Origin: Lytechinus pictus
Lineage: Eukaryota
Direction of reading: 5' to 3'
Length of the DNA: 64,000 nt
NCBI RefSeq assembly: GCF_037042905.1
Contig: NC_087251.1
Location: forward strand, 9,612,001-9,676,000
Part shown: in pieces, positions 21,749-59,800 of the stretch
Layout: each line of letters starts with the position of its first letter
How positions within the stretch are numbered: the first letter of the stretch is position 1
Notes under the pieces: generated by a model
What the model saw: only the letters and a program-made list of their open reading frames with translations
What the model was told of the DNA's origin: nothing
The model's database searches: none
Made by a program: the position numbers and the translations under genes

Positions 21749-22948
21749 TTTTCAAGTTTCAAGTTTATTTATTCAAAACCAAAAACATCACATCATAATC
21801 AAAATAGATACAATAAATACAACGTAAATGAGTACATAAACATACATCAATTAGATTATAGCATAGGGTTTTAGGACCCCTTTAAAAGCAAAGCTTGTGA
21901 GTAGGGTCCTGGAATATTAACATAAAACATAGGATATACTAATCTACAAGATACAAAAGGAGGGAGAAAAAATATATAATAAGGTTAAGATGCTAAAAAT
22001 AGAATGGAAAACTATTACAAACACACACATATACACACACCCACACACACAACCACATCCACCCACATATGCACATACAAAACATAAATTCTGAGTAGGT
22101 CATCTATATACTTAAATGCAAATACATCAACTTAAAATACATATTGAAGGAAAAAATAATCATAATCTGTCAAGAAAGAAAGTTTTCGATAATCTTTTGA
22201 ACATGAAAAGAGTTTTACTATTTTTTTTATATCAACAGGTAAATTGGTCAGAGTGACATTTGTACTCGCAAATGGCTGACGAAATAGATCCTTTTGACGT
22301 GTATTATAATTATGTATTTGTGAATTCTGAAGAAATATTTTTTTTAAGGTACATTCTTGAGGCATTGATTGTAGTTTGAACATGAACAATGCACAATTGA
22401 ACGACACAAGTTCACAAAGTGGTAGCATTTTCAGACGAAGAAATAACGGAGTACTTGAATGTCTATATTAGAATTTGTTATAAGTCGTATTGCCCTTTTC
22501 TGCAATACTCTCAATTTATCAAGATAAGACTTGAAAGTGTTTCCCCAGGCAACATTACAATATGTCAGATAAGGTAGAACAATACTATTGTATATTGTTA
22601 TCAGTATCATTTCAGGTACAATTGATTTAACCTATAAATAACACCTACACTGCGAGACACCTTTGTGCAGACAGCATCTAGATGATTTTTCCAGGATAGG
22701 TGCTCATCGATATATAACCCAAGAAACAAAATATTTGCACTTGGTTCAACATCATGACCCCCTATATGAAGACAGGTTTTACGCCCTGGAAGCTTTTTAC
22801 CCTTAGAGCGGAAAATTATGCACTTGGTTTTTTTAATACTCAACAATAGCTTATTGCAACAAAACCATGAATACAGCTTCTTAATTTCTTGATTTGCAAC
22901 CAGTAACAAATTTTCTACTGACTTATCAGTAAAAAAACGATTACTGAG
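21749..22948 (-). mobile_element. 5'-truncated, frameshifted LINE (CR1/L2/Crack-like), RT C-terminus and 3' end
   Basis: WFCCNKLLLSIKKTKCIIF...FLGLYIDEHLSWKNH...KVSRSVGVIYRL, then LYNSIVLPYLTYC and LQKRAIRLI in shifted frames; 3' end AATAAA followed by a CTTGAAA repeat tail. Confidence 0.85.
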
Positions 22949-31281: not shown

Positions 31282-33171
31282 GGGCAGGATTCTGAAAATC
31301 GTGTTATCTCTCTGATTTAACACGCCCCTAATATACCCCAAAATCGGTATTCTGAAAAGCGTGTTATCTGCTTGTTATCTCAATTTTTGTTATCTTTAGC
31401 TCCTCCAACTCTGAATCTATTAAATCCAATCAAATGCGCTGTTAAAGAAAAGATCACACAGAATTTTCAGGTGAAAAAATTAGTGCGCGCGTGGTGACAT
31501 CATCACTGTAAGCGCATACAGCACATTACAGAGGTACAGCTAAATAAAAGTTAGAGCTAGATAGAGACATGAGGGGTGATTGTGGCAATTAAGAATGGAT
31601 TATTTCGGACAGCAGGAGTATGAAATTATAACAGAAGACAGAGGCCACAATCGATAGTGGAAAAAGCAGGGGGCAATCACCCCATGAAAAAAGGGGGGGC
31701 AGACATATCTATTTGCCCCCAATGAATTTGAGAACTTAAAAAAAAAAATGCAATGCAAACTTAAAGGTCAAGTCCACCCCAGAAAAATGTTGATTTGAAT
31801 AAATAGAGAAAAATCAAACTCGCAATACGCTGAAAATTTCATCAAAATCGGATGTAAAATAAGAAAGTTATGACATTTTAAAGTTTTGCTTATTTTTCAT
31901 AAAAACAGTGATATGCACAACTCAAATGAGACAGTCGATGATGTCCTTCGCTCACTATTTCTTTTGTTTTTTATTGTTTGAATTATACAATATTCAATTT
32001 TTTATAGATTTGACAATAAGGACCAACTTGACTGAATCATATAGTATTAAGCAATGCCCATTCCATATGTTCAGGGAGGAATTAATCGTTGTTTCACTTG
32101 ACAATAAGGAGAAAAATAGAATATTCCCTATTTCATATAATAAAATACAAAAGAAATAGTGAGTGGATGATGTCATCAGTCTCCTCATTTGCATACCCAC
32201 CAGGATGTGCATATAACTGTTTTGTGAAATTAAGCAAAACTTTAAAATGTCATAAATTTCTTATTTTACATCCGATTTTGATGAAATTTTCAGTGTTATG
32301 CTTGTTGGATTTTTCTCTTTTTATTCAAATCAACTTTTTGTTGGGGTGGACTTGTCCTTTAAGAAGCATGAAAAGCACTTTTAATGAACACTAAACTTGA
32401 CATAGAAATGTTAATTATCACACATACAAAATTGTATTTTTTGGGTGCGCTGCGCACAATTCTTTATAATAATTTGGTGTGCAGAATGATCAGCCAAAAA
32501 ATTCCAGTCGTTGAAACTATGAGTTGCTTATTGAAAGGGGAAAAATTTTGCAAATATTATAGAAGCTTCCCCAATTCCATGTTCTTAACAATTACATTCT
32601 TTTTAATTGCTGTTTATGCTTTTTTTATGCTGTCTTTAATTTTCTTCCTCTCCTTTTTGTCCTGTTTTACAATATGGAAAAAGTAACCAAATAAATCATT
32701 TATGAGCATATGATTTCTACGTAAGCCAAGTTAAAGACGAGTTTGAAGGGTATTTTCACAGGAAGTTCAAGACATTGTTAGTAGAGAGAAAGGTAGATCG
32801 AGGGCCAAAAAATGCAGGAAAAAAATGAAAGAAAATTACAGGAATTTCTGCCATACGATAGCTTTATGCCAGTTTATGTTGTTTTTGACGTTTGCGTCTG
32901 CTAGAAAAAGTGCAGCCATCGTCATCCCCAACTTAACTCCTCCTTAGTGCAGTGTTAAATGTTTGTGTTATCTTTGAACAAAATTTTTGCTAACACCATT
33001 TTCAGAATACCAAATTTCGTGTTATCTTCCTCCCTAACACCACGTATGGGAGTTGCGCTTCGCGCACTGCGGCCATGCGCGGTGTTACCACTTGGGCCAC
33101 ATGCTTTTCATGCTAACACGATTTTCAGAATACAAATCTTGTTAGCTAACACGGTTTTGAGAATACCGCCC
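31282..33171. mobile_element. Harbinger-like non-autonomous element downstream of the NEK9 stop
   Basis: GGGCAGGATTCTGAAAATCGTGTTATC vs GCTAACACGGTTTTGAGAATACCGCCC; subterminal motif repeated at both ends; flanks CAG and CCG. Confidence 0.75.
31765..32358. mobile_element. Kolobok/T2-type MITE nested in the Harbinger-like element
   Basis: TTAA TSD; termini AGGTCAAGTCCACCCCA / TGGGGTGGACTTGTCCT; ~150-bp inverted arms. Confidence 0.85.
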
Positions 33172-51600: not shown

Positions 51601-54600
51601 CATGTATGTTGCAAAGACTTACAAAAAATGATTTCAAAGGCTGCAGTATATTTTCAAGATAATGAACTGTGTATGATCTATGATGTGAAAGTTGTGGAAA
51701 TACTGTACAAATTACAAGTGATTACCTGTGAAGGACATCTATTTGATGAATATATGCCACAGCAGCAACAGTTTGGAACAGATACCATAACACCAGCTGA
51801 AATGTCAAAGAAAATCATTTATGTTTCCTTCAAAACAACTTCTCTCAATTGAAAATTATGAAAACGAAAAATGGCCCTGAAAAACGCAAAATAGCAAGTC
51901 AAACTACAGTGTACTTCCATTAAGTACTTTTATGACATTGGAATTGTAACAAATTTTATGACTAAAATAAAGCATCAATACAAATCAAAATTAGCATACA
52001 CATTTACAAAATCTTGTGTATTTGATACAATGGGAATATGACAAAGTTAAAAACAACAAATACCAAGAACTACCCTTTAGCTTACTATACTTACAATGTA
52101 GAGTAATATTGATTTTGTTTGGGACACCAGAAGCACACAACCATAACACATTGACAATTGTTAATGGGGTGACATACACTATAAAGGTTATCGAGGTCAT
52201 TTCTACAAGCTACACAACCCTTTTGTGTAGATAGTTTGAATACAAAACAATCACACAAAACTTGAGACAACTTGTTATCAAAACAAAACACCAGTTTTTA
52301 CAAATTTTGTCTCTATTTTCACTTGCAATTGATAATATTTTTGCAGCATATGTAGCATGTGCAACTAGTGTATAAATGAGAAATTATGAGTTTTCTATTA
52401 ATACAGGTATGTCTGAACAGAAAAATTGATGGGAATCATTACCTCTTCTTCAAACAGTGTACCATCTTGATGAACAATTTTCTCATAAAGGGTGCCTCCT
52501 GAAAATGAATTAATGATTTCATCAATAATATTCACTTTTAATCCTTTCAAGAAAGGACTACATGAGTGATATAATTTAAAGTATAAATCAGTCAACTAGA
52601 ATTCTGGTTTTCACAGGATGTGAAACAGTTTTTTTTTTCATTAATTAACAGTCCAAACACGATGATAATACAACAAAAAATCTATCAATTTTCAATTATT
52701 TTGGGGAAAAACACCAACATCACTAATATGCAAAGCTTTATTTCATTTCAATCATATTTCAAATACAAGTTTGTAGACAATCTGAACTACAATATATTAC
52801 AGGTTTACGGCCTGGACTTGGGCTCAACAATTTTATTTTCTTTCATTGGATAACAATTCTGCAATATGAGAGAAATACACTATGTTTTGTCCAAAAGTGG
52901 TTATACCTAAGAATGTTTCCAAAGATGATGATGATTCCAAAAGCCAGCTCTTTCGTTTTGTACTTGAGCATAATAACAAGTTTCTACTACAAGAATGTTA
53001 AACATGGCAAATTTGCCTTCTCACTGAAACAACTTAGTACAACCATCTACATGTAATAAGTCCTCACTCTAACATAATTTGATGCAAGAGAGAGAATCCT
53101 CATTCTCATATGAATATGGAAATGAATGATACAAAAGATGGTGGTCATACGGAAATACAGCTTTCCAGTAGCAGTATTACCAATTACTTTGGAACAGTAT
53201 ATTGTTTGCTTATTTGAAGTTTACTTTCATAAGCTTTATTTTTGATTGATTTTCAGTCTTTGATAACCTTAAAGCATCAAGGAAAACACATTCAATTATT
53301 ATTAAGAAAATGAACATCAGCGTCAAATGTTTTGTATAAAATAAAGCAATTACACTATTCATATTTTTTATATTTCAAAAGTTACAAGTTGTAATTTTGA
53401 TTAATGAATTAATTTGATTTTTAGAATTTATAATGAAATTTATTTTCCTCATAATGTTTGTATGTATATAATGGTATCATGCTATAATTATTATCTGTAT
53501 ACTGTCTTTTAACTTGAAATGTAATATGTTAGACAATCATTGTATTTGTAAGCATGCTAAAATTTCAGCCATTTGGCTGCCATGTATGCAATTGATCTTG
53601 TCAAATAAATATCATTATTGAATTGAATTTTACTGTTACACAGAATTTATTAATAGTGTAGTAGGTTTCACGGTACACCATGTATCTTTCTTGGGCAAGT
53701 GTCGGTCCTGAAAAAGACCACCCAAACTTAACTGCTATGCTGACCTGTATGTCTGTATTCAAATTCATTTTTGAATGAACTGACCATTGGCATACCAGTA
53801 TACCCAGTTGTTGTGTCCAGATGATGAATTTTTGAAATTCATGATTTGGAAAAATGTACAAGCAAAGTTTCATCAAATTTTTAGTAAAAAATGTTAGGAA
53901 AGATCATAGAGAGCAAAATAGAAAAAGTGTCCGGACATCCGACCCCCCATCATACTCCATTTCAATGAAGAGTGATGGAGTTTGGGTGGTCCTTTTCAGG
54001 ACCAACACTTGCCCAAGAAAGATACATGTACATGGCGTAGTGGAGACCGGGGTTAGTTGGAACGTGGGGTAAGTTGAAACATTGTAATTTTCTTTAACGT
54101 CTTTAAATAAATTTCTGCAATACTGCCCTCAGTTTATTGCCATTATCAACAGCCATCCACCATATTACAGACAACACATGTGCAACAAGCCTGGTGAAGT
54201 TAGAAAGGAATTTTTGTTTTTTGACCTTCTGAGTAATTTTGTTCTCTTTCAGAAATGTTTTATTATTTCAGAGAAGTTTATAGATCAAGTTGGCCATTTT
54301 GGGGGTATGATAGACACTTGTACCAAGCTACAAAATGAGGTTATTAATATGCCATGGTGAAGTCCTTTTTTTGTGCTGTAAGCTTATAAACGTCAAATGG
54401 GCCTCCGGGGTTAGTTGGAACAAAATTGAAGGGGCTAGTTGAAACATGTTCCAACTTACCCCAAACATAATTATGAATAAAAATATATAAAGTATTTCAC
54501 ACTCTTCTGAACATGTATTGTATACCATGCTTGTTTTGTTTATCAGTTACATGTAGGTCTGAGTGTGCATTTAAGGCCTATTGTAGGCCCCTAATGCAAT

Positions 54601-56813
54601 ATTAACCAGTTATCAAACTGGGGGGGGTCAATTTGAGCCCCCCCCCCCCTCGAGAAATTTGGTCACTACGCCGTCGCGCGAAATTTTTTTTGACTACACT
54701 GCTCGCTGACTTTTTACTTTCAAGTCTTGCGCATCATTTGAGACCAAATTTGCGGTGCCTGTGTGCGCGGTTTCGAAATTACGCAACATTTTGTACGTGC
54801 ATGTCGGACCCAAAATTGCTCAAAAACGTGATTCCATGTACAAGGTCAATGCAAATTGTGTTTTTCAACCAAAAGTCATAAATGTATGATTATTAGGTGG
54901 TCTGTCTATGACAGATCACCTTTTATGTTTGTCCGAATTTTCTTTCTTTCTTTATTTATTTATTTATTTATTTTTATTTCTTATTTTTATTTCCTCCATT
55001 TCTTGTGGACAGCAAATCTCAGAAAGTTCATATTCAATAATCATCAAAATATCAGCACATATCAACATCAATAAGACCTCAATTCTGCAAGAATCTTAAT
55101 GTCATGACGTCATCATGACGTCATCTAGACGCCATTTTGTAAAATCACATTATCAATCATATCTCCATTATCAATTATCAAAAATAAATCAAATTCACAT
55201 GACATAAACTTCAGATCAAGGGTCATCAGGTCATGTCATCAAAGGTCACCTGAAGGTCACGACGCGCGCGTACGCGCGCGTCAAAATTTTAAAATGCTAA
55301 AAATCACTTTTTGACCAAAACAGAGTACGTTTTAGGTCATTTTAAGCATTTCAAAAAATTGCGCGCGCAAACGTATGCGCGCGCGTTTCCGCGCGTAACG
55401 CCTTGAATGCAACTCAGAAACACCGTTTTTTTTATTTCATTGCATTGATCATATAATTTTGAGCAATTTGATACCTTGATCAACCTTCTACGACCATTAA
55501 TAAGGAAATTAACACCCGTTAAAGTTTGCAGCACGTGTGCGCGCGAGCTCTCACTATAGGCCATATATGGGCAAAAACATGCCTATAGAAAATCCGCTGT
55601 AGCTCTTCAGAACGCATGGGGACCCCCAATTTTTTTTTCATATTTTGATAGAGTATGAACTAGAGATATAATTTCATGTCTCATTTGACCCTCAAGTATA
55701 TTATGACGTCATCAAAATGGCGTCGGAATTCAAAAAATCCATTTTGCCTATTATGACGTCATTATAATTATGCAAATCTTGCTCTAACTCCGTGAATATT
55801 GGTCAATTTTCACCCAATTTTTGATATGTTGTAGCTTAGTTCTTACTCTTTCTGAGTTATTGCCTTTATTTTTCATTTTGATAGACAAATCATCCTCAAA
55901 AATTGCAAATAATAATGGCATGTCATTTTTACTCATTTTGCGTGTAATCTCTATGGGACATGACTTTTTCTCAAAACTAGATTCTACATTCTTCTATTTC
56001 GTAAGCCATATCTCCAATTTTTGTTGCTAGTTATCCCTGAGCTTTTAGTATGTTGTAGCTGAGATTCTAAGCTTTCGGTTGCGTTTCCTTCATTTTCCGA
56101 TCAGATGTCGGGATCATGCCCGTAATTCACTTGCAAGATTGGATTTGAGATTCTGGTGTTTTGCTTACGTGTTAAGTCTATGGGAAATATTCTAGCTCAA
56201 TCGGTTAGGCGTCAGACTTACTTCTCATTCCATCATGCAGGCAGGGGTTCGAGTCCGCGGGTGAACATGATTTTTTTTTTTTTTTTTTAGCTATCTTGCC
56301 CACGATCAATTATAACAATTCTAACAAATAATAGCTAAAATATTGCAAAATAAAACAGATTATAATTACTTTTTTATATCATATCTATTTATCTGTCTGT
56401 CTATCTACCTACATGACATATCTATCTCTCTGTCTAATATATATCTTTCTGTTTGAATACGTCCCTCTCTCTCTATCTATCCATATGTCTGTCTGTCTAT
56501 CTACCTACATTGTATATCTATCTGTCTGTTTATCTCTCTCTCTCTCTCTCTGTCTAATATATATGTATCTATCTGTTTAGATATGTCTATCTATCTATCC
56601 ATCCATCTGCCTGTCTCTATCTATCTATCTATCTATATATCTATCTATCTATCTGTCTGTCTGTCTCTCTATCTATCTATCTATCTGTCTATCTATCTAT
56701 CTATCTATCTATCTATATGTCTGTCTCTCTATTCATCTATATGTCTGTCTCTCTATCTATCTCTGTCTCGATCTCTATCAATCTATATGTCTGTCTCTGT
56801 ATCTATCTATATG

Positions 56814-56846
<33 letters not shown>

Positions 56847-59800
56847 ATATCTATCTATATGTCTGTCTCTCTATCTATCTATATTTCTGTCTCTCTGTCT
56901 ATCTATATGTTTGTCTATCTATATGTCTGTCTATCTATCCATGAAGCTATCACGAGAAGGAGAACCATCTTCCAATTTCTCTCTTAATCCTTTGTTATCG
57001 CTTCCTTCGGGCGAAGGAACGATATCTAACATCAATTGGCGAGCCGCCAGGCGAAAGTTAGAGCCCGCTTACATAACGCGATAGGACCACGCAGCATGAA
57101 GCTATTACGAGATAGCTCGTAATAGCTTCATGATATGTCTGTCTCTCTATCTATATATATGTCTGTCTATCTATCTGTCTATCTATCTATCTGTCTGTCT
57201 CTCTTTCTATCTATATGTTTATATATGTTTTATTAATATAACCACCAATCATCTCTCTATCTATCTATATATCTATATATCTATCAATCTATCTCTCTAT
57301 CTATAAGTCTGTCTCTCTATCTATCTATATGTCTGTCTCTCTATCTATATGTCTGTCTCTCTATATCTATCTATATATGTCTATGTTTTATTAATATAAC
57401 CACCTATAATTTATCTCTCCATCCATCACTCCATCCATCTAATATAATTATCTTTCTTGTATGTATCTGTTTGATTATGTAAATCTGTTTGTCTATCTAT
57501 TTTTCAATCTAATATCTGTTTAAATATTTTTTTCCTGTTTATCTATCTATACGACAGACCACCTAATTCGTCCGCATGACGAATTAAAATCTAGTTTTTT
57601 ACTTTTGTTGGTTCAAATAGATTTATTTTATACTATTTATGATCGCAAAAGAGTCCCTACAAACTTCATCAGAATAAACAAAGAAATACAAATAAAAAAC
57701 AAAAAATACATAAGAAATTATATTTTTTGCAATTTTTGGACTTGGTGGATATTTGTTATAAATGTGAAAATTGATACTCTCACCAAAAATTAGCATTTTA
57801 CTAGCTTAATAAATAGAGTTAAAGGCAAAAACAAAAAAAAATTTAGGGCAAATTTCATACGCTTATTTGCATAATTAATTAATGAAAAAAATATAAACAA
57901 TTAATTTTGGTCTTGTAAATTTGATGCAGAAGTACATGAAATTGCTGATAGTACACTTAAGGACGTTCCACAGTTAAAGTGAAATCCATGCCATTTTTAC
58001 CAAACTTTGCACATAGATACTTTAGAACCTTAATATTCGAAATATGCAAAAATTAACATAGGTTCATGTGCTTGATTTTTTGCTGTAGAGCTTCAAAGTT
58101 CACCCAAATTGATGTTCTTAAGAATTGCGCATTAAAAAGAATTTGGCATTTTTAGACCTCGCAAGAATAGTACAATGAGTTTAAACCTCTATTACTCAGT
58201 CAAAATACATGAAAAAGTCATCAAATTTCGCAAGAGAGTTAATAATTGTATCGTTAGAATGGAGAATCTATGTATGGTGCTATTTGTTTGCAACTTTAAG
58301 ATTAACAGCACAGTCAGTTCTTAAAAATGGCGAAAAAGATAACAAAAACCCAATCTCAAAAATGTGAAATTTCAATAACAGACTACAAAAGTACAATAAA
58401 TGCTGCACTTTATTCAAAATCCATGTCATTTTCACCAAAATTTGCAAGGCTGTAGAGGAAGCTATACCTAAGAGGTACAAACATTAAAAAATAGGGGTTC
58501 ATGTGCTTGTTTTCAAACTATCAGCATTTTTATTAGAGCAAATATGCTTTTTAAAACACCAAAAATGCGCCAAATGCTTTGTATCTATGTGAAGAAAAAT
58601 CAAAACCACTCTACTATTTATTCAAACTTGGGGTCATATTCGTGATTCTTGGCAGTACTGCAGAGTAAAGTATTTTGAAATTGTAGAGATATTTTTTAAA
58701 TGATCCATGGAATAATTCCATTTTTTTAGCTTCATAAAATAACGCATCGGATCTGCAGTTAGGGTGCAGATGATGAGAAAAATCAGCTCATATCCACAGC
58801 TAATTAATCACCTGTTCATCCATTGTGACGTCAGCGCGCAGAGTGTTAAATATGCGCAGATCATAATGCGCACAAACATAACTGTGGAACGTCCTTAATT
58901 GCATGTAAAATCAAACGCACCCAAATATGCAGAATTCTACTAACAGTCTGCTTGCGTGAGTGGCTGTATAATAGAAAACATAAAGTTCAACAAATCTAAA
59001 CTTCAAATATTTTGAACTTGAAAAAATAAAGCAAATAGGCTAAAACCATGTAATATTACAGTTTTAAGTAGTTTTAGTATAATTCTTAATTGACCATGCA
59101 GTGTTCCAACTTACCCCATACCATGTTCCAACTTACTCGTATTGGGGTAAGTTGGAACGTTTGCGATGGTCTTGTTCAAGGTGGATTTTTTCAGTAACAG
59201 TAACCATAATAGAGTTAAAAATGTTATGGGGTACATTTGAAGCCCTTAGATATATGCTTCAAGCTGATATATTGATTGTTTCTCGAATAAAATCTATTTG
59301 GATTTTACAGCCATTTTTGTCAAAATTTTTCCAACTAACCCCGGTCTCCCCTACTGTGAAACCTACTACACTATTCTTCTTTGCCATGGAAACCATCAGA
59401 AGTTACATAATTCATTAACTTAATCAAAACCAATCTACATACCGGGTACTAGTAATGTATAAAGTGAAGTAGAATGGATGTGAAATTTAAACACTGAACA
59501 TGAATTGCTATTCCTGCTATGCTGACCTGTATTCAAAATTAAAATTAAAATGTAATTTTTAATGAACTCACCATTGGCATACTCCATTTCAATGAAAAGT
59601 GATTGCTCATCCAAGAAATGATTGAAATAAGAGATTATATTTGCATGATTTAACATTGAGAGGATCTCTATTTCATTCTGAGCATCATACATGACTCTCT
59701 CAGAGCAACGCGTCAAATTCACCTCCTTCCATACCACCAACGAATTGTCCTAAAAATAATAAATGCACACATTGTAAGGACAGTGAATTTCTGAACTTAA

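Follow-up and report, generated by a model that had tools for sequence, protein, structure and literature searches.

Inverted arms around a copied NEK9 exon–intron junction in Lytechinus pictus: most likely the footprint of a Penelope-like element

A 64 000-nucleotide stretch of the Lytechinus pictus genome (RefSeq assembly GCF_037042905.1, contig NC_087251.1, positions 9 612 001 to 9 676 000 of the forward strand; referred to below as the window, whose numbering is used throughout) was analysed around a structure in intron 2 of the NEK9 gene, in which two inverted arms enclose a copy of the gene's own exon 2/intron 2 junction. NEK9 is encoded on the minus strand; its exon peptide is 100% identical to a Lytechinus Nek9-like cluster and 97–98% identical to other sea urchins, and was identified by tblastn as NEK9 coding exon 2, with exon 3 near 52500. 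A sequence-only reading had taken the structure for a DNA transposon of the Pack-MULE or Pack-CACTA kind, bounded by terminal inverted repeats (TIRs) of ~75 bp. The feature is real; its carrier, misidentified as a DNA transposon, is most likely a Penelope-like element (PLE).

Every match to NEK9 that had been listed for the interior was recovered at the same positions by blastn against the window: 53732–53795 aligned with 59514–59582 (E = 1.6e-10) and 53951–53976 with 59578–59603 (25/26, E = 3.6e-6). With a 155-bp insert removed, the interior (53732–53976) is colinear with 59514–59603 and in the same orientation, with 75 identities, four mismatches and 17 gap columns, nearly all of the latter within one AT-rich slippage tract. 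The match also withstood formal alignment: the local score of this filler was 105, and 787 other 160-bp windows (both strands) scored no higher than 32, with 17 as their median. Copy and donor, both still in place as had been proposed, are separated by substitutions and indels, so that the copy is not a collapsed duplicate. No microhomology was found at either filler junction, both of which carry 1–3 unmatched bases. The donor had correctly been placed beyond the right end of the element; this end lies at ~59405, not at 59375, and the donor thus begins 108 bp past the tail described below and 95 bp past the probable target duplication (in window coordinates).

Contigs from four of 24 listed public runs (X1, X5, X8 and X10) were placed on 53250–54070 of the window. 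No contig in the four runs spans the whole unit, which would be compatible with an assembly artefact; this explanation, like that of a chance similarity, has a negligible probability given the alignment score and the differences between copy and donor. A 151-nt contig of X8 covers 53749–53900 with no other letters and one gap and crosses the filler/insert junction, not the arm junctions; its weight against an artefact is confined to the filler/insert part, and the source sample may be X8 itself. In X1, X5 and X10 no contig covers 53754–53781, a hole that proves nothing regarding polymorphism or splicing. The native NEK9 donor GT is at 59571–59570 and the copied GT at 53784–53783, with an altered base at +3. 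The decoy 5′ splice site that had been suggested is therefore present as sequence, and nothing shows its use: with a +3 base outside the consensus and a single weak AG candidate upstream of it within 53770–54040, it is judged unlikely to be used. The effect on NEK9 itself is probably nil.

The inverted arms that had been reported do exist. They are 78 bp long (not ~75 bp) and, if a 6-nt tandem duplication on the right is disregarded, closely similar; the right arm is split by a 5.3-kb nested element, and neither arm end behaves like the end of a DNA transposon. Without its two nested insertions the unit measures 280 bp. A 30-nt tail is present on the right side only and is followed by one copy of a direct repeat of 12–14 bp, the other copy of which abuts the left arm. 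The repeat matches at 12/14 positions (P ∼ 0.0005 against the window background), or at 10/12 strictly outside the arm (P ∼ 0.0025). It is regarded from these comparisons as a probable target-site duplication, and as probable only because three of nine settings of length and end gave P values of 0.02–0.03. Two frames, both containing an ATG, are open through the sense arm plus tail (53978–59418); by comparison with other PLEs, the element's open reading frame (ORF) may begin in one of them.

The 155-bp insert with its CATAC duplication, which splits the copy as previously described, belongs to another abundant repeat with its right end at 53950: contig depth is very high over 53838–53950 and lower over 53782–53837, and one X10 contig leaves at 53950. 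No terminal inverted repeat was found between the first and last 45 nt of the insert. The simplest reading is that the insert arrived later, with a 5-bp duplication; alternatively, it may represent a second template switch. An internal 35-bp palindrome lies at 53816–53850.

Thousands of contigs mapped to the region (3001 in X1 and 2001 in X5), and depth was far higher on the arms and the insert than anywhere else. The arms are thus a high-copy repeat, in agreement with the expectation that they recur elsewhere. On the inner side, contigs depart from the reference directly before 53978 (68 in X1, 62 in X5 and 11 in X10) with the consensus AGAC GACAAG AACACA CTTGTC GAAA CGTC, and a single X8 contig carries the same letters on the other strand behind 53725. 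These letters comprise the end of the first box of a hammerhead ribozyme, an unpaired base, a 6-bp helix II, GAAA and CGTC, and they adjoin the first bases of the arm, with the first three of which helix I begins. All visible positions fit the consensus of the metazoan minimal hammerhead ribozyme (min-HHR), namely a first box ending in NGAH, a 6-bp helix II closed by G–C, GAAA, a palindromic minimal helix III and cleavage after H; the 30 printed letters take in neither the opening three letters of the first box nor the 5′ strand of helix I. The layout is that of the Strongylocentrotus (2) motif, which is likewise followed by GAG (PMC4209133, supplement file 2). Cleavage is predicted directly before 53978, and the left arm stops at 53728–53729, the same site on the other strand. 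Agreement among the loose ends at 53978 is only ~0.6, which suggests, as a rough estimate, that about half of these contigs do not enter the ribozyme.

On the outer side, contigs continue past 53652 with a 30-nt extension (71 in X1, 86 in X5, 19 in X10 and one in X8), to the consensus of which the tail at the locus corresponds. A second group leaves at 53653–53654 into unrelated AT-rich flanks (49 in X1, agreement 0.41; 40 in X5, agreement 0.43), and many contigs stop at 53652–53654. At least 13 distinct joints between an antisense and a sense arm occur among those listed; 40 further joint rows and 19 further rows of intervening letters lie beyond these, and intervening letters were given only for fillers of up to 40 nt. 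In none of the nine listed joints with intervening letters (2–40 nt) do hammerhead letters stand beside an arm. An arm end lies within 9 nt of the predicted cut in seven of these nine and exactly at it in four; the fillers of two listed joints resemble re-copied arm pieces. Feature coordinates are collected in Table 1.

Table 1. Positions, in the window, of the parts of the composite unit in NEK9 intron 2 and of the host sequence copied into it
Feature	Position	Strand	Evidence
Probable target-site duplication, left copy, 12–14 bp; last 2 nt overlap the arm end	53640..53653		12/14 to 59405–59418
Left arm, probable antisense PLE end piece; predicted hammerhead cut at 53729, outer end without tail at 53652	53652..53729	−	74/78 to right arm
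Filler, part 1: 2–3 unmatched bases, then copy of 59514–59582 (58 nt of intron 2, donor site, end of exon 2)	53730..53795	+	Alignments
Multi-copy repeat insert, 155 bp	53796..53950		CATAC on both sides (5-bp duplication)
Filler, part 2: copy of 59578–59603 (exon 2), then one unmatched base	53951..53977	+	25/26
Right arm, first part, probable sense PLE end piece from the predicted hammerhead cut; 6-nt tandem duplication	53978..54039	+	Loose contig ends and alignment
Later nested element, 5.3 kb, with ~23-bp GC-rich terminal inverted repeats and TA duplication	54040..59351		Sequence comparison
Right arm, second part, opening with the duplicated TA (arm sequence 59354–59375)	59352..59375	+	23/24 to left arm
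PLE-type tail, 30 nt, right side only; possible ORF start	59376..59405	+	28/30 to loose-end consensus, by eye
Probable target-site duplication, right copy	59405..59418		Match to left copy
Filler donor: 32 nt from the end of NEK9 exon 2 and 58 nt from the start of intron 2	59514..59603	+	Alignments
NEK9 coding exon 2	59572..59749	−	Peptide match and tblastn

The earlier assignment to a non-autonomous TIR DNA transposon (a Pack-TIR or a miniature inverted-repeat transposable element, MITE) that captured flanking gene sequence by gap repair is very improbable in the light of these contigs. It would account for two 78-bp inverted arms of 95% identity, for the high copy number and for capture in cis as described by Tan et al. 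(PMC8277862), and a host fragment between inverted repeats with its parent nearby is indeed what the locus contains. The arms are nevertheless not true termini: in other copies the family sequence continues past both arm ends, into the hammerhead motif on the inner side and into the tail on the outer side. Nor does the probable target duplication abut both arms; it lies outside the one-sided tail, which does not fit TIR ends. The interior consists wholly of the host copy and the later insert, whereas the spacers of other copies differ (2–40 nt) and their inner ends vary. Gap repair following excision is likewise not supported: in other copies the arms are cut short to varying extents, and the short spacers that join them are not the same.

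A minimal hammerhead, in its visible positions, within what would be the pseudo-long terminal repeat (pLTR), a one-sided tail within the 30–40-bp range and a head-to-head inverted 5′-truncated copy are all found at the locus or in other copies of the arm, and PLE insertions with a tail of 30–40 bp at one end and an inverted 5′-truncated copy have been described (PMC8557442, PMC3846280, PMC2377424). On this basis the arms can with high confidence be assigned to a PLE. The hammerhead argues against the clade Naiad, since Naiad elements are without canonical hammerheads (PMC8557442). The locus directly shows two arms lying head to head with their inner ends at the predicted cut, the one-sided tail and the direct-orientation match to the right flank; the left arm has the polarity of top-strand complementary DNA (cDNA) begun at the tail-less start, and the right arm that of bottom-strand cDNA begun at the end of the tail.

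On balance we consider it probable that the whole unit arose in one PLE insertion in which both strands were nicked, cDNAs of cut RNA were made and these were joined by filler. Staggered nicks 12–14 bp apart in AT-rich DNA would have provided two 3′ ends. The top-strand end would have primed at the inner reverse transcriptase (RT) start site, giving the tail-less left arm, and the bottom-strand end at the outer RT start site, giving the right arm with the tail, so that each strand would prime a cDNA of ~80–110 nt. Both cDNAs would then run off at the 5′ end made by the ribozyme. Finally, before end-joining, the left cDNA would have been lengthened with either the right flank's exposed bottom strand or NEK9 pre-mRNA as its template; at a single locus these are indistinguishable because they have the same sequence. 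Such patching would be needed since cDNAs of the same polarity cannot anneal, and this need would explain the variable spacers. The 155-bp repeat and the 5.3-kb TA-duplicating transposon would have entered the unit later, and the resulting product is probably inert. As parts of this reading, two-ended priming with templated filler is likely, and the use of ribozyme-cut RNA as the template is rated slightly better than even.

The arms differ from one another at 4/78 positions and the filler from its donor at 4/79, and this similar divergence fits a single event, albeit in small numbers. An alternative is that the arms were inserted first with a short spacer and that the filler was added later, through gap-filling of a break at the palindromic centre, or that self-priming gave rise to the inverted pair. 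Inverted repeats that lie close together are prone to breakage. Filler capture biased towards cis is also common in animals, with 160 of 281 Pack-TIRs lying within 15 kb of their parent (PMC8277862), and self-priming is the explanation offered by Arkhipova et al. for head-to-head PLE structures (PMC3846280). This sequence of events is considered improbable: neither arm has lost sequence at the cut, as would usually be expected after a later break with resection, arm and filler are alike in divergence, and the junctions show neither a palindrome nor microhomology.

Both arms stop at the predicted cut, which suggests that self-cut RNA is copied into the genome; if the template were the 3′ product of the ribozyme, both cDNAs would end at the same base, as is seen. 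The same insertion and filler could have been produced from uncut RNA, had the RT stalled at the folded ribozyme or had the transcript started at that spot. Inner ends in the contigs scatter 0–9 nt, and sometimes 16–54 nt, inside the cut, and if the RT stalled at helix I of an uncut ribozyme, the ends could be almost identical. Among the listed joints with intervening letters, however, four of nine, like both NEK9 arms, end within 1 nt of the cut and none of the nine extends into the ribozyme, and a stall at the strong helix II would be expected to leave ~8 extra bases. Uncut RNA as the template is accordingly regarded as unlikely.

Several observations, in addition to the stalling just mentioned and the self-priming proposal, weigh against a single insertion templated by cut RNA. 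The hammerhead cleavage site is predicted from the consensus only, and self-cleavage is likewise a prediction. Metazoan min-HHRs cleave poorly in vitro (PMC4209133). In a different, Poseidon-clade element, Frangieh et al. (2024; PMC11167929) found normal insertion of ribozyme mutants in vitro, a predominance of uncut RNA as the substrate and no RNA-seq read with either end at the cut. Two of the nine listed joints with intervening letters have neither arm near the cut; the joint counts derive from a selection of the joint rows, with long extensions unprinted and a reference that stops at 53978, and represent a suggestive count rather than a test. The probable target duplication contains two mismatches in AT-rich DNA, its P value depends on the settings as given above, and no empty allele appeared among the contigs placed on 53250–54070. 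An annealing step of the polymerase-theta type usually leaves microhomology, which is absent from both filler junctions. Finally, no ORF with an RT or GIY-YIG domain was linked to the arms, and no ORF body is present at the locus.

Two protein searches with arm translations, in two frames, yielded nothing usable: one gave no matches and the other three repetitive chance matches. Rfam searches at gathering scores gave no match in the 64-kb window, and a regular expression for the complete minimal hammerhead likewise found none there, as expected if the ribozyme core is missing at the locus. Scans for the arm motifs gave no matches in viral contigs or genome contigs, and the motifs are absent from the supplements of PMC8557442 and from supplement file 2 of PMC4209133. 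Three matches in metagenome contigs were rejected as chance, being in bacterial-looking DNA with no further similarity.

Other repeats were noted within and around the unit. The 5.3-kb element contains subterminal repeats and further repeats nested inside it, and no ORF of note. Within it lie a ~950-bp element at 57954–58901 with 23-bp inverted ends near TTAA, and a GC-richer insert of ~190 bp in a (CTAT)n tract at 56940–57135, which opens with a near-copy of a 38-bp palindrome at its other end (57095–57132) and is possibly another Penelope-type insertion. Just left of the PLE insertion, 53390–53630 is a multi-copy repeat by contig depth, with AATAAA and a short-repeat tail resembling the 3′ end of a long interspersed nuclear element (LINE). 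A foldback element of ~600 bp (31760–32363; 77% self-complementary) begins at TTAA just beyond the 3′ end of NEK9, and two minus-strand ORF pieces at 22132–22948 have, as judged by eye, the look of a decayed LINE RT C-terminus.

The role of the hammerhead in PLEs and the origin of their head-to-head structures are both described as open (PMC8557442, PMC11167929, PMC4209133, PMC3846280). Within ~280 bp the present unit holds both predicted RT start sites, both predicted cut ends, a probable target duplication and a traceable filler, and both questions thereby become a genome-wide count of 5′ ends and fillers. A broader model can be put forward tentatively, with rather less than an even chance of being correct: a dimeric RT-endonuclease holding two RNAs, possibly cut as a hammerhead dimer, would nick and prime both strands, and the like-polarity ends would be patched with filler templated by the arms or the flank. 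If this were true, head-to-head PLE footprints would be a routine source of short local duplications of gene fragments, and some of the sequences classed as animal MITEs and Pack-TIRs would in fact be scars of retroelements. The locus is also a caution for screens based on TIRs, in which a PLE scar can be recorded as a MITE or a Pack element.

Solo pLTRs with host DNA between them have been described before (Arkhipova et al., 2013; PMC3846280), and inverted pLTRs, tails and flank-templated filler are likewise known. A literature search that left most subscription papers, including several older PLE papers, and some supplements outside its coverage found neither PLE copies reported to end at the hammerhead cut nor PLE filler traced to the adjacent flank; the accessible parts of PMC7229834 and of bioRxiv 10.64898/2026.07.22.740005 contain nothing on insertion ends. 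The locus resembles endonuclease-positive PLEs (PMC3846280, PMC8557442) in its inverted 5′-truncated pLTRs, one-sided tail of the 30–40-bp class and probable target duplication. It differs from them in having no ORF body, in both arms stopping at the predicted ribozyme cut and in a captured piece whose source, still present, can be located 95 bp from the insertion; its probable duplication of 12–14 bp is also longer than the 8–10 bp of Adineta vaga PLEs. With the min-HHRs of metazoan PLEs (Cervera and de la Pena, 2014; PMC4209133) the family at the locus shares the unpaired base before helix II, the 6-bp helix II and the palindromic minimal helix III. The ribozyme core is absent at NEK9, where only the 3′ cleavage product is found, twice. 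Those authors propose cleavage followed by circularization, whereas at NEK9 the linear 3′ product appears to have been the template. Dimeric PLE hammerheads have been described by Lunse et al., as cited in a review (PMC6765202).

The anole PLE protein PAc (Poseidon, Anolis), a predicted dimer, nicks both strands in vitro and extends them, and the tail of this element is the stretch between two RT start sites (PMC11167929). The insertion proposed here is like it in nicking and extension of both strands, in two RT start sites that bound the tail and in an AT-rich target; the ribozyme of the anole element is dispensable and no reads end at its cut, whereas at NEK9 the genomic ends lie at the predicted cut. 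At LINE 5′ junctions extra nucleotides are templated from flanking DNA (PMC4760211), and R2 forms snap-back, extra-template and untemplated junctions (PMC11331408). In both systems, as here, nearby host DNA is copied into the 5′ junction of a retro-insertion; the NEK9 junction differs in joining two cDNA ends rather than a cDNA to the target, and in the 90-nt length of its filler. Single-copy Pack-TIRs (Tan et al., 2021; PMC8277862) share with the locus a host fragment between inverted repeats and a parent nearby. They are DNA transposons in which small internal gaps were filled after insertion, usually with microhomology, whereas the NEK9 unit consists, most likely, of retroelement pieces joined with none.

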